64,000 nt of DNA. Source: an uncultured Pseudomonadota bacterium. Lineage in GTDB: Bacteria > Pseudomonadota > Alphaproteobacteria > RF32 > CAG-239. The stretch spans positions 240,203-304,202 of the forward strand of contig CACWQS010000002.1 in assembly GCA_902763155.1 (NCBI GenBank), written 5' to 3'. Positions within the stretch are counted from its first letter, which is position 1, and every line of letters starts with the position of its first letter. A program made the position numbers. Positions 52,201 through 58,200 of this stretch are shown here, piece after piece.

Positions 52201-55200
52201 ACGATATCTTGAATTTGCTCAATTGAAGGAATAGTGTCTTCAAACTTGTGATTAACAACCTTCATGACCTGTGCGGTCAGAAGCCATGCTTCGGCTTCCT
52301 TAAATTCGCCGGTAGAAGTGCCGGCTCTTAAGATGGCGTTATAAATTTTACTCGAATCAAAAGGGGCTAAAACACCATCTCTTTTGGTTACATCTTTAAT
52401 ATTGGTCTCTATTTCAAAATTTGGGCTCTGCTCGGCCATTTAATCTCTCCTCAAAGTTGTCGGTTATTTTTTTAGTATAAATACAATATATCGTTTAACA
52501 AAAAATTAAAAACACAAGATATTGTATGTATTTTTATAAAAATAAACAATTAGCGTCTCTGAAAAACATTCTGCAAAATAAATTATTCAACAACAAGAAA
52601 TTTTATTATATTTTTTTTATCAATCGGGGATAAGTAGTATAACCCTTTATAATATCAGCAAAAAAATTTTCGGCTGTTGTTAATTTTAACTAAGGTTAAT
52701 TCTTATAATGTAAAACATATAGTTATATATAATATATTGAAATGGCAAAATTTTTTTTGTTAATAAATGTATCTGAAAATCATTTTTTTCTTAATTTAAT
52801 GTTTATTATATAGAAAAAGGAGTCGCTTTTTTATGGCGACTCCTCAAAAGAAAATCAAAATAATTTTTATTGCATACGACTCGGACGTGCCGGAGCAAAT
52901 ACCTTAACGTCATCAAGCGTTTCATCAGTGCATTCTGCACCGTTGCAACGTTTTAGGACCGTAGTTTGACGACTGCGATTAAGCCCGCGCACATTCAACG
53001 ATGGCACATAGCGGTCAACAATCGTCAGCTTAAAGGTCAAATATGCCAAGTTACTGTTGTTGTCCATTGCGTAAATTTTGATTTGATATACGCCGTCGTC
53101 TCCCGGCATAGCAACTCCGTCAAACGTCTTGGTTGCCGAATTATATTTAAGCCACTTCGGCAAAGGCGAATCGTCAATCAAACCTGCCTTTGTAATGTAA
53201 GTTCCGGCGCTCCAACCCATTTTGGCAAATGCCGATTCCGGCAGAACAATATTGATGTGTTCGCCTGTCTGATAAGTAACGTCAGGCAGTAATTTTTCGT
53301 CGGACAAATTAACCGGAGGACGACGACTCGGCAAATCCAATAAATACGGACGAGCTTCCGGTGTAAATTCGCCCAAACGCCATTTTTCCAATGTTTCACG
53401 CAAATTCAGAGCAATCGTCGACGGCGATTCGTTTAACATATAATATGGAACGGCATCTAAACCGATTGTGGCATAAAGCGCACCCAAAGCATCTTGCAAA
53501 TCTACATAAGCGAGCGAAGCTTTTGTTTCATCGGCAATGGCGCGAGCCGCTTCTAATTGGCTCTTGGTTGCTTTGCTTCCGCGAGCACTGACTATATCTT
53601 CGGCAATGTTTTCCGAAGTTCCGGCAATTTCCATTGCGATTCTGTAATCTTCTTCCGCCGAAGTATAGCGCGCCCAACCGACATATACCTGATTCAATAT
53701 CAGCGATGTCATACGTTGACGGCGCAGAGTAGCCAATGTAGCCTCGTCCATACCGCGAGTATTTTCGTAAGCGGTCATAGATGCCTGTTTGGCGGCATAG
53801 CACCACTTCTGTGCATAAGCCTGCGGATTATCAATATAGTTACCGGCTGTATCATCACGGAAATTTTTAATGACCATTTGTAAATCATCTGAGCCTAAGA
53901 GTAAATCATGTGCCTTCATTTCCGGACGATTCGTTAAAGCCAACCACTCCAATTTTGCCAAATCCGATTTCATTTCCGGCAGAGCAAAATTGCCGTATTC
54001 TTTTCCTACCAATGTAAATTCGGTTGACGGGTGTAAGCCCATTAGTGAGGCTAAACGTTCATGCGCAGTTTCCATATCACGCTTCAAATCGGAAAGTCTT
54101 TGCACTTCTTCCATATATTGGCGCTTTTTCATCAAATCGGCAGTAGAAGGCGTCTCTCCGTTCAAAGCCAATTCTTTAGCATGAGCATTCATTTCATCAA
54201 CATCGAGTGTGATATGTTCAATGGTTGCGTCAATAACCGGCAACAAACGCTGTGCGGTAATAGCTTTCCAATACAAAACGCGTGCTTCCTGCAAAATATT
54301 TTGAATAACCTTACGGCTGACTTCAACCGAAACATTTTGTTTAAAAGTTTGGTCATTATTCATGTAGTATAGGGTTGAGATATCCAACACATTCCATGCT
54401 ACTTTCAAATCAGGCGATGTGTCGTTGTAATTAGTGTTTATATAACCGGCATTAGTGGCAATCTCCGGCAGTTGCGAATATCCCGAACGTCCGGCTTTTA
54501 AAAGGCTTTCTTGATAGCGCATAACCCGACCGGTATAATTATATTTTAATGCCAGTGCCATGGTCATATACATATCGATAGGTTTTTCGATTTTCGTTGG
54601 TGCATTGGCATACATATTCTGCATATCAACATCATAACGAATAGCTTTGTCCCAATCGGTATAATACGCCGCATCGGGACCGGTGGCAATATAGCTTTGT
54701 CCGCTCGGTTGCTCATTATTTATGCACCCCGCCAACGTCAAAGTTCCTAACACCAAACAAAACAGTTTTTTCATGTTTGTATCCTTTTACTCGAGTCAAT
54801 TATCTGCTTTTACAATAATCGTTAAAAATTAACATTTTATTACACTTTTGCGATTATTATACAAAGTAAAGATAAATTTGAGGTAAAAATAAGCGATGGT
54901 ATCAATATTAGGCACATTATTTAAGTATAAAGAAAAAGAATCTCCCGATGTTTTGGGATATTTCCCTGAGCGAGTTCATGTTGATGCCTTTCCGGAGCGC
55001 CGCTATTTGTGGACTTCGCGCTTTTTGGTAATTGCAACCTGTTTGAGTATCTGTTTGAATATGGCTCTGGCCAGTGTTATTTTTTCCCTTTTGCCGGAAC
55101 AGCATGTTGAACCGCGTTTGTTCCGAATAAATTTTGCAGAAAATCAATTGGAAATGTTACAAAAGGACGAAATAGATTATTATGCCAGTGATTTGATTGC

Positions 55201-58200
55201 CGAACAATACCTGCGCGACTATATTTTGCTTCGCTATACCATAACGGAGGACTATGCCGAACTCAAAGAGCGTTGGCGCAAAGGTTCTATCTTGTATTGG
55301 TATTCTTCTAACTCTGTTTTCAGAAACTTCATCGAAAAAGATGTGGCGGTTATGGATGAGCAGTTCAAAGCTCTCGGTTTGCAACGCTATGTAGAGATAG
55401 ATTGGACTAAGCATGTTTCGCGTTCAATGTGGATGGTGCAGTTCAAAACTTATGACATTACCCGCGATAATCCTAAACCTAAAATTGATATGTGGCGCGC
55501 TACCGTGCGTATCGGCTATGACCGTCGTTTGCAATTTCGCCGGCCTGAAGACCGTATCTTGAACCCTTACGGCTTTTTGGTTTATAGCTATACGTTATCT
55601 TATCAGGGCGACTATCGCGGTGGTCCGGACGAAGTTCCAAGCAATATCAAATATAATATGATGATGTATTAGCATGAAAAAATATTTATTGCTTTTTTGT
55701 GTGGGACTATCAGCTTGCGCTTCGATAGATGTGCCGAAAAGTTTTATTTATCGCGAAATACAGACCTCTACATTTAAAATTGCCACATGGCAAAAAGTAG
55801 AAAACGTCGATGCTCCGTTTAAAATTTATATTGAAGGTGACGGCTATGCTTTTCGTGCAAACGGCATGGTCAGTTCAAATCCTACGCCGCGCAGTTTTAT
55901 GATTCGCGAGTTAGCATTTACCGATTCGCACCCTAATGTGATTTATATGGCACGGCCATGCCAATTTGCCAAAGATAACAAATGTGAACCTAAATATTGG
56001 TCAAACGCACGTTTTTCTAAAGAAACGGTGCAAGCAGAATATGAGGCGGTGCGCCAGATTGCCGGTTCTCGACCTCTGATAATAGTCGGTTTTTCCGGTG
56101 GGGCGCAAATTGCCGGACTTATGGCTGTTAAATATGATGATCTGCACATAGAAAAATTAGTAACCGTTGCCGGTAATTTAGATGTTAAAGCTTGGACAGA
56201 TTACCATCATTTACCGGAGCTCAATCTTTCCGAAGATTTACGCAATTATCAGGCACAATATGCCGATTTTAAGCAAAAGCACTATATCGGCACAGCAGAC
56301 GACAATATTATCCCGCATATAACCGAAAAATTCGTTGCTGATAAAAACGCGATTGTTTACGTTCAAGGTGCAACACATAATAATGGTTGGAGTAGCTTTT
56401 ATGAGCAGATTCGCGCTGAATAAAACTATACCATCGAAGCAATTAAAATTGTAATGTTTGAAGTGAACAATTTTACTGCCAGCGAGAGCAAGATGATACC
56501 GAACGCTTTTTGGAAAATGCAAATAACCCCCGGCGACAACCACTTTTCCAATTTAGTGGATAATTTAAGCGCAAGATAAACCACAATGACATTGGCTATA
56601 ATTGCCAATAAAATATTAAAATCGGTATATTGCGAACGAATGGAGAGCAAAGTTGTGAACGAACCGGCGCCGGCAATTAACGGAAATACCACTGGTGTGA
56701 AAGTGGCATCATTACCAACCATATTGTTTTGATGAAAAATCTCAATATCCAAAACCATTTCCATTGCAACAATGAAAACAATAATCGAACCGGCGACCGC
56801 AAATGACGAAACATCAAGACTGAACAGACTTAGAAACGCCTTTCCCATATACATAAAACCGACAAATAAAATCAGCGAAATTATGCTGGCGCGTGAAGCA
56901 CTGACATATCGTCCGTTGTGTTGCAGGTTAAGAATTACCGGCAAAGTTCCGATAATATCAATAATAGCAAACAGCACCACAAAAGCACCGGTAAATTGGG
57001 CTAAATCAAATTGTTTCAAAAACTCCAATACAGACATTTTTTTCTCCATAAAAAACGACGACGATTATTTCATCGTCGCCGTTCTAACAAACTAAATCGA
57101 ATTAGTCAATATCTTTACAATAAATATTTTGCTTAAAAGATACCTAACAAAAAACGTCGGCAATTAACCGACGTTTTAAGTATTAGCAAATGTAAAAACA
57201 GGTGCTCAGCCAATCTTTCAACGAAGCATATTTCCGTCGAAACATAAAGTTAAGAGATAAACTCGGATCGTCAAGACAGGCTTTATCCAGACGAATCATC
57301 TCCTGTTTTATAGCATTTAATTTCTTGTTCAAATTCTCGGCCACTTCCAGCTTTTTGAGGTCTTCCACAAACTCAACGGTGAAAAGACAACCTTTTTTAT
57401 ACTGAATAAAATCCGGTAAAGAATTGGTCAAATCGTTCTGCGGAAATTTTTCAATATAGACATGGGCATAAAGCGGCGTAGTACGTTGCACATCAATCAG
57501 GCAAAATTCGGTCGGATCAAGATAAATCGGAGAATGTTTCAATGACAAAATCTCTCTGATTTCATCATCTTCATCATCATTTTCATGACGACCGGCAAGA
57601 GCACGTAATTTTTCTAAGTATTCCTTTTCTTCAGCCAAACGAGCAGCTACGCACTCAGCAATATTAGTCCCCGGCACTTGCGGTGAAATATCTTTTACCT
57701 TATTGCAGGAGTAGAGCGAGTAGTAAGCTAAAGTCATCACCTCAGCCTCATCTTGGGTGAGCTTGGTTTCGGGAGTACGAGCTTTTTTCAGCGTTTCCAC
57801 CAAACCTTTTACACCGAAACACGAAACGTAACGTTCTGCAATTTCACGAAAGTTAAGTCCGGCGCAATTACCATTGAAACGTCGTGGCGCCATAGTTTCC
57901 AACAGCAGAGAAAAGTTGCGGCGCAACAAATCGGTCTTGTGGGCGGCACTGGCAAAAATCATGCTGTATTTGTCATCCAAATCAGCAATCAGCTGGGCTG
58001 TGTCAATACCGTTAACTTTTGCCAGACAATAGGCATCAACGACGGAATAAAATTCCAACTTCTCCAACAAATTGATTTTAAGACGCTCGGAAACAGTTTT
58101 TACAAAATCGTATTGCCAAGAAATCGGTCGGCAAAAGCGCAAATCTTCAATAGCGCTCGTAAGCTCGCTTTCCTGACGATCAACTTCTTTAACTACATTC

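Follow-up and report, generated by a model that had tools for sequence, protein, structure and literature searches.

A solitary, lineage-wide VirB8-family protein of uncultured gut and rumen Alphaproteobacteria and its divergent lipoprotein neighbour

In type IV secretion machines, VirB8 is considered an obligatory scaffold, encoded within an operon. The Agrobacterium protein AcvB/VirJ (Pfam PF06057), a periplasmic alpha/beta serine hydrolase, acts as a lysyl-phosphatidylglycerol hydrolase. Even the dispersed type IV secretion system (T4SS) of Rickettsiales, termed rvh, whose genes lie at several chromosomal sites, keeps islands of 2–5 virB genes (rvhB9-I with rvhB8-II; rvhB7, rvhB8-I, rvhB9-II, rvhB10, rvhB11; rvhD4; PMC4676284). 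Here we analyze a 64-kb stretch (hereafter the window) within a 437-kb contig, CACWQS010000002.1, from a lineage of uncultured gut/rumen Alphaproteobacteria, and describe a VirB8-family gene that, like the VirD4 gene of the same window and in contrast to the rvh islands, has no virB neighbor at all. We refer to this gene, ORF1 (open reading frame 1), and its product as VirB8L, and to the species-representative loci of its relatives as VirB8L loci. Literature searches (VirB8 with TolC; RF32 secretion; orphan VirB8-like) returned no earlier description of a solitary, lineage-wide VirB8 beside a TolC-like gene.

A VirB8-family protein conserved across a gut and rumen lineage

An earlier note on this DNA had described a VirB8-like gene followed one nucleotide later by a hydrolase lipoprotein gene, ORF2. 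Both open reading frames lie exactly where it had placed them (Table 1): the ORF1 TAG stop codon occupies 55670–55672, a single C follows, and the ATG of ORF2 begins at 55674. The motifs it quoted are likewise present, as residues 223–232 of ORF1 (NPYGFLVYSY) and residues 139–148 of ORF2 (GFSGGAQIAG). The VirB8-family identity of ORF1 is confirmed by several features. A hidden Markov model search matched it to Pfam VirB8 (PF04335) far above chance, with 52.4 bits against a curated cut-off of 23.2 (E = 7.9e-14) over the whole domain (profile positions 18–209 of 213), and PF04335 is present in every listed VirB8L relative. A family profile built from 14 diverse members further matched the solved VirB8/TrwG structures 4lso, 2bhm, 4kz1, 4jf8 and 7o41 (E = 1e-6 to 8e-4) across residues 64–232, and the periplasmic domain is predicted to adopt the NTF2-like fold of these structures. 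The sole hydrophobic segment, at about residues 40–68 with R35, R36 and R42 nearby, is predicted to form one transmembrane helix at about residues 43–65, giving a predicted bitopic layout of about 40 cytoplasmic residues, the helix and a periplasmic NTF2-like domain. Residues N223, P224 and G226 of the NPXG motif (NPYG at 223–226) and the juxtamembrane W39 are invariant in the 14 diverse family members; NPXG and the juxtamembrane tryptophan are hallmarks of canonical VirB8/RvhB8-I that are lost in divergent RvhB8-II (PMC4676284). We considered an NTF2-like family unrelated to secretion, of Tim44 or SnoaL type, and rejected it: VirB8 alone matched, and the match runs through the transmembrane region. 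No DotI/IcmL match appeared, and the nearest relatives of ORF1 are P-type/rvh-like.

VirB8L thus shares its bitopic topology, NTF2-like domain, NPXG motif and tryptophan with canonical VirB8/RvhB8-I proteins (rvh; VirB8 of Brucella and Bartonella; TrwG of R388), and differs from them in four respects. In more than 80 genomes it has no adjacent virB7, virB9, virB10 or other virB gene; its 40-residue cytoplasmic tail is unusually conserved (FKYKEKESPD.LG.FPERVHVDAFPERRYLWTSR); it stands constantly head-to-head with a gene for a TolC-like lipoprotein; and it is a core chromosomal gene of the whole gut/rumen lineage. A scan of a genome collection found VirB8L relatives in 243 species-level genomes, and the best 80 of these 243 are, without exception, metagenome-assembled genomes of uncultured gut or rumen Alphaproteobacteria, among them uncultured Rhodospirillaceae bacterium RUG560, Alphaproteobacteria bacterium UBA3307 and Candidatus Scatocola faecipullorum.

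The solitary position of VirB8L, isolated from all other virB genes, is what would be expected of a decaying remnant of a lost T4SS that no longer has a function. That explanation is very improbable, and the pattern of conservation contradicts it. All of the 80 or more loci compared retain a full-length reading frame, the ratio of nonsynonymous to synonymous divergence (dN/dS) is about 0.03–0.05 (a rough value, as dS between orthologs is saturated at >1.5), relatives persist in the 243 species genomes, the motifs that are key to structure, though irrelevant to catalysis, are invariant and the promoter region is conserved. With intact frames everywhere, low dN/dS and conserved motifs and promoter region, VirB8L is a functional gene under purifying selection.

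Relatives inside T4SS clusters and the search for a dispersed system

An exhaustive search with the VirB8L profile recovered 737 clusters at 50% identity with E <= 0.001, including 70 at E <= 1e-30. For four of the more distantly related clusters (P0454, P0441, P0448 and P0437) we inspected the surrounding genes. The locus of P0454 (L094) reads VirB4, four unknown VirB6-like genes, VirB8, a 66-aa VirB7-like lipoprotein, VirB8 (P0454 itself), VirB9/CagX and a giant open reading frame, an order that matches the rvh order described in PMC4676284. The locus of P0441 (L096) holds VirB5-like paralogs, an 800-aa protein, VirB8, a VirB7-like gene and a second VirB8, and the VirB8 of this cluster has the tail motif LG.YPE.VHV.A.PERRYLW in common with VirB8L. 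P0448 (L095) is another orphan VirB8, and at the locus of P0437 (L092) a tandem second VirB8L copy lies behind the same lipoprotein gene (259 + 257 aa, 7212–8774). In phmmer searches from VirB8L, E-values were 2e-42 for L096, 1e-41 for L095, 1e-31 for the L094 copy beside VirB9 and 6e-14 for the other L094 copy. VirB8L is 35–37% identical to the VirB9-preceding VirB8 of L094 and about 26–29% identical to a plasmid VirB8. The nearest plasmid homolog, at 26% identity (phmmer, 3e-23), is encoded on a plasmid of Erythrobacter as part of a complete VirB2-B11/D4 operon. Because the closest cluster-embedded VirB8 proteins sit in the rvh-like L094 and L096, VirB8L is, judged by its sequence, a canonical-type VirB8 of rvh-like ancestry. 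The presence of the tail motif in the T4SS-cluster VirB8 of L096 means that the motif arose before the gene became an orphan, and argues for a cytoplasmic partner that has been kept. In the R388 structure, VirB8 contacts the N-terminal domains of VirB4 (reviewed in PMC12857230).

Further details of these relatives bear on the VirB8 family at large. L094 (1–16717, assembly GCA_965314975.1) has its two VirB8 genes on either side of the 66-aa VirB7-like lipoprotein gene, four consecutive unknown genes at the site expected for rvhB6 paralogs, a VirB9 with a faint SPOR match, and an open reading frame of >2,700 aa at the position expected for VirB10. The tandem duplication in L092 echoes the VirB8 duplication of rvh systems, in which B4, B6 and B9 are duplicated as well. 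Two additional proteins, P0487 (621 aa) and P0492 (586 aa), each contain three or four separate stretches matching the periplasmic part of the VirB8L profile and are multi-NTF2 VirB8-like proteins.

The window encodes a second T4SS component, a VirD4-type coupling protein 29 kb from VirB8L, whose presence and distance agree with the earlier note (T4SS-DNA_transf, 196 bits; Table 1). This VirD4 is intact, with two transmembrane helices, a Walker A motif (APPGTGKT) and a Walker B motif (LFVLDE). Over 731 aa it shares 33% identity with a plasmid VirD4 (E = 1e-108), and 121 proteins make up its 90%-identity cluster. The virD4 gene is the last of a conserved four-gene block (19416–25771, plus strand) that recurs in other surroundings in a relative (L097, 5769–12214). 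The three companions (657, 161 and 448 aa) belong to no known family, Pfam searches at E <= 10 giving noise only, and phmmer comparison of the three with T4SS proteins found nothing. The 161- and 448-aa companions both start with a two-helix transmembrane hairpin and are weakly alike (BLASTP, E = 0.013), and in the 448-aa protein an acidic linker is present and the C-terminus faintly resembles NERD (E = 0.12).

We searched for other virB genes by tblastn, with two complete T4SS protein sets as queries, in the window plus 20 kb past its ends (~84 kb) and in ~1.4 Mb of relatives' flanks (L001–L086). The isolation of ORF1 from virB9, virB10 and virB4 that the earlier note had remarked on extends over this whole area. 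No other T4SS domain or virB-like gene is present in the 64-kb window, and the sole VirB11-like match comes from a T2SSE ATPase encoded within a type IVb-pilus-like cluster (585–8967).

The explanation we favor, to which we give about an even chance, is that VirB8L still functions as the VirB8 scaffold subunit in a chromosomal T4SS, the genes of which are dispersed one by one. We favor it because the tail motif is common to VirB8L and a T4SS-cluster VirB8 and because an intact, highly conserved VirD4 is present. VirB8L would be a vertically inherited inner-membrane protein from an rvh-like T4SS, with a periplasmic domain that oligomerizes through the NPXG region, and its gene would have become separated from all other virB genes in this lineage. 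The protein would serve as a periplasmic/inner-membrane scaffold subunit, VirD4 would be another part of the same system, and expression would proceed from the conserved divergent promoter region that VirB8L has in common with the TolC-like lipoprotein with an immunoglobulin-like (Ig) domain. A complete T4SS encoded at other sites of the genome, contact of VirB8L with that system and any physical link between VirB8L and the lipoprotein are inferred. Several observations weigh against this explanation. Homologs of VirB4, VirB6, VirB9 and VirB10 are absent from the window, from the 20 kb past its ends and from the ~1.4 Mb of flanks of >80 loci. Even rvh keeps virB8 beside virB7/virB9 and virD4 beside virB11 (PMC4676284), so the degree of dispersal needed here would be unprecedented, and the constant pairing with the TolC-like gene is left unexplained by a T4SS model. 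The likeness to Rickettsiales rvh systems drawn in the earlier note is apt in that the nearest clustered relatives of the orphan VirB8 are rvh-like (L094). The dispersed T4SS itself stays hypothetical.

The divergent lipoprotein and the downstream hydrolase

The invariant partner of VirB8L is the divergently encoded 635-aa lipoprotein, which the earlier note had overlooked. Its gene is head-to-head with VirB8L in 73/73 loci with enough upstream sequence to be scored, across a range in which its own identity falls from 94 to 50% and that of VirB8L falls to about 50%. The outer flanks of the pair vary, with NrdD in only some half of the loci and a differing downstream neighbor of VirB8L, and the head-to-head arrangement is kept even where VirB8L is tandemly duplicated (L092). 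The two proteins diverge at nearly the same rate, with lipoprotein and VirB8L dN values of 0.076 and 0.079, 0.086 and 0.086, and 0.107 and 0.124 (dS saturated).

The intergenic region between the two genes is 103–237 nt long across the 80 loci compared and contains a core, TAAAAATTAACATTTTATTACACTTTT (54823–54849), that is invariant in the close clade, recognizable in distant clades and unique in the window, where 0 matches are expected by chance. A promoter-like site (TTAACA-17 nt-GATTAT, 54829–54857) overlaps this conserved core, and a GAGG Shine-Dalgarno sequence lies at 54880–54883.

The N-terminal ~450 residues of the lipoprotein are helical and probably TolC/OEP-like, judging from two pairs of ~35–55-residue helices and from matches to Pfam OEP (PF02321) in 11 of 26 orthologs. 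Three orthologs (P0141, P0151 and P0161; 74–76% identity) pass the OEP cut-off of 22 with 22.7–28.8 bits, for one repeat only (residues ~66–242), and NCBI calls one relative a 'TolC family protein'. For the window protein itself the OEP score is 9.7 bits, below the cut-off. With TolC/OprM proteins of NodT type, the lipoprotein shares the N-terminal lipobox, the paired long helices and, in orthologs, the first OEP repeat, and an 'ALTNRPE'-type motif appears to open its second half. It differs from them in carrying an extra C-terminal dystroglycan-type, cadherin-like Ig domain (He_PIG, 28.1 bits, residues ~493–590; also matching dystroglycan) followed by a Cys-containing tail, and in that a second repeat was undetected. 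Alignment of the two halves with hhalign found no internal repeat, at an Neff of only 1.6. The family profile matched no solved TolC-family sequence, the AlphaFold2 (AF2) model was poor, and the profile had no similarity to the T4SS proteins of L087, L094 and L096. The TolC assignment is borderline and not secure.

The lipoprotein gene has no adjacent membrane-fusion protein or pump gene. A relative encodes a resistance-nodulation-division (RND) pump (ACR_tran) and a membrane-fusion protein with no adjacent outer-membrane factor (L097, 1–2660), and the lipoprotein could accordingly be simply a housekeeping TolC, a shared exit duct.

The constancy of this pair is best accounted for, together with the lack of virB neighbors, by an exaptation in which VirB8L acts outside any T4SS and forms a two-gene envelope module with the TolC-like Ig-domain lipoprotein, its inner-membrane-anchored NTF2 domain serving as a periplasmic adaptor or assembly factor for an outer-membrane channel. 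The complete head-to-head adjacency down to ~50% VirB8L identity while the outer flanks vary, the near-identical dN of the two proteins, the conserved core in the shared intergenic region, the persistence of the pair despite the L092 duplication and the distance from any other virB gene all speak for it. We nevertheless consider it unlikely, if a serious contender. Two core genes adjacent within one order-level lineage can reflect plain synteny, the TolC assignment that the module presupposes is borderline in its OEP score, its structural matches and its model, and the lipoprotein may be the housekeeping TolC for an RND pump such as that of L097. The tail motif held in common with a T4SS-cluster VirB8 argues instead for a retained T4SS partner, and the literature searches provided no precedent. 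A third arrangement, a hybrid type IV/TolC-dependent route in which the TolC-like Ig lipoprotein has replaced the VirB7/B9/B10 core and VirB8L bridges a VirD4-containing inner-membrane complex to it, strikes us as improbable; that complex would also include the three conserved companions of VirD4.

The gene directly downstream of VirB8L is a different matter. As the earlier note had proposed, ORF2 is an alpha/beta-hydrolase lipoprotein: it has the lipobox GLSAC with an invariant Cys15, matches Abhydrolase_1 at 29.8 bits among generic alpha/beta-hydrolase Pfam models only, and yields an AF2 model with a pLDDT of 92, strand-elbow-helix geometry and no lid. Read from this model, ORF2 qualifies as an alpha/beta serine hydrolase, with a GxSxG elbow and an acid and a histidine in canonical order. 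The invariant residues C15, S141 (the GFSGG nucleophile), D209 and H235 and the invariant C96/C104 pair indicate an active, exported Ser-Asp-His enzyme. Foldseek returned many hydrolases at probability 1.0, all generic matches with a TM-score of ~0.6.

According to the earlier note, ORF2 resembled VirJ/AcvB and formed a translationally coupled pair with VirB8, and a model built on this would make the hydrolase a virulence factor of VirJ/AcvB type serving secretion. The arrangement in this genome gives the model some footing: the gap is 1 nt here and 1–9 nt in all 15 loci with a hydrolase, no Shine-Dalgarno sequence precedes the ORF2 ATG, nothing resembling a promoter or terminator lies between the genes, and the two proteins are both envelope-exported. 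From the short gap and the missing signals, co-transcription and translational coupling are plausible in this genome and its subclade. The VirJ resemblance, by contrast, found no support. PF06057 had 0 matches at E <= 1 in ORF2 and 29 family members (48–100% identity), which instead match Abhydrolase_1, FSH1, Palm_thioest and Thioesterase, seven non-VirJ alpha/beta-hydrolase families in all. A tblastn search of PLSDB with ORF2 (72,556 plasmids, E <= 10) gave 178 records of which 0 were from Agrobacterium, the virJ content of its Ti plasmids being unchecked. ORF2 is thus like AcvB/VirJ in being an exported alpha/beta serine hydrolase with a GxSxG nucleophile, and unlike it in lacking a sequence relation detectable by Pfam or tblastn and in being a 249-aa lid-less lipoprotein of its own widespread family, often encoded behind autotransporters.

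The pairing is not a conserved feature of the locus either. Of 77 species loci, 15 have a hydrolase gene directly behind VirB8L, all within the close clade (VirB8L identity >= 69%), and is absent from that position in the other 62, comprising 29 of the same close clade and all 33 more distant ones; in five loci a convergent MarC gene abuts VirB8L in its place. The hydrolase family is larger than that of VirB8L (935 versus 225 matches) and evolves faster, with a dN 3–4 times that of VirB8L (dS saturated). Its homologs (31–50% identity) lie directly downstream of autotransporter beta-barrel genes on a 1.78-Mb contig that is unrelated and on megaplasmids of Pseudomonas including pQBR57 (129 records match), at L085 6288–8756, L086 2854–6155 and pQBR57 (L090) 3034–6693. 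As a general rule the VirB8–VirJ model is largely refuted, and we hold it to be improbable. ORF2 is an accessory, patchily present passenger gene, not demonstrably a VirJ/AcvB homolog and not a required partner. Its product would be a generic lipoprotein of serine esterase type, periplasmic or anchored in the outer membrane; part of the clade would have gained the gene by insertion behind virB8, with which it would be co-transcribed. Autotransporter adjacency suggests a recurrent tie of the hydrolase family to outer-membrane proteins, and an Azospirillum homolog lies in a type VI secretion system-associated region.

Table 1. Features of the VirB8L locus and the VirD4 gene, in window coordinates
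Feature	Position	Strand	Basis
VirB8-family protein VirB8L (ORF1), 258 aa	54896..55672	+	Pfam VirB8, family profile, phmmer, invariant motifs
Outer-membrane lipoprotein, 635 aa, lipobox LAGC (Cys17)	52867..54774	-	He_PIG, OEP in orthologs, adjacency
Divergent intergenic region, 121 bp	54775..54895		Comparison of 80 loci
Lipoprotein alpha/beta serine hydrolase (ORF2), 249 aa	55674..56423	+	Abhydrolase_1, AF2 model, invariant residues
VirD4-type coupling protein, 736 aa	23561..25771	+	T4SS-DNA_transf 196 bits, TraG-D_C 78 bits, motifs

Other features of the window and significance

Several further genes of the window are of interest in their own right. The cluster at 585–8967 (minus strand), of type IVb-pilus or type II secretion system-like character, continues past the window start (L088) and is unrelated to the VirB8 locus; besides the T2SSE ATPase it encodes a secretin, PilO-like (PAP_PilO) and TcpQ-like proteins and several products that match no family, and a T2SSF platform gene lies beside it just outside the window. 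Serum-amyloid-A-like, ankyrin-repeat and TPR proteins are typical candidate effectors of host-associated bacteria, and the window encodes a 236-aa protein with a eukaryote-type serum amyloid A domain (PF00277, 62.7 bits; 29332–30042, minus strand), an ankyrin-repeat protein (61158–61925) and a TPR-methyltransferase (26627–28402). Three genes at 31451–34499 (plus strand) encode a putative ATP-dependent Zn protease (PF05618), an inactive transglutaminase-7TM fusion and a sugar-transfer-associated ATP-grasp protein. Cumulative GC skew is lowest at ~12000–16000, where gene orientation flips (minus to 14702, plus from 15220), and parAB, gidAB and dnaE lie just upstream of the window (L088); a replication origin is probably close to ~12000–16000.

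These analyses correct the unsupported 'VirJ' label of the gene behind VirB8L and show that a canonical-looking VirB8 stands alone as a core gene of common uncultured gut/rumen Alphaproteobacteria, with at least 243 species-level genomes carrying it. If the scattered T4SS is real, its genes would be dispersed more extremely than those of Rickettsiales, which would bear on the regulation and assembly of such systems and on effector injection by commensals. If instead VirB8L was exapted, a T4SS subunit would have been recruited to another function of the cell envelope.

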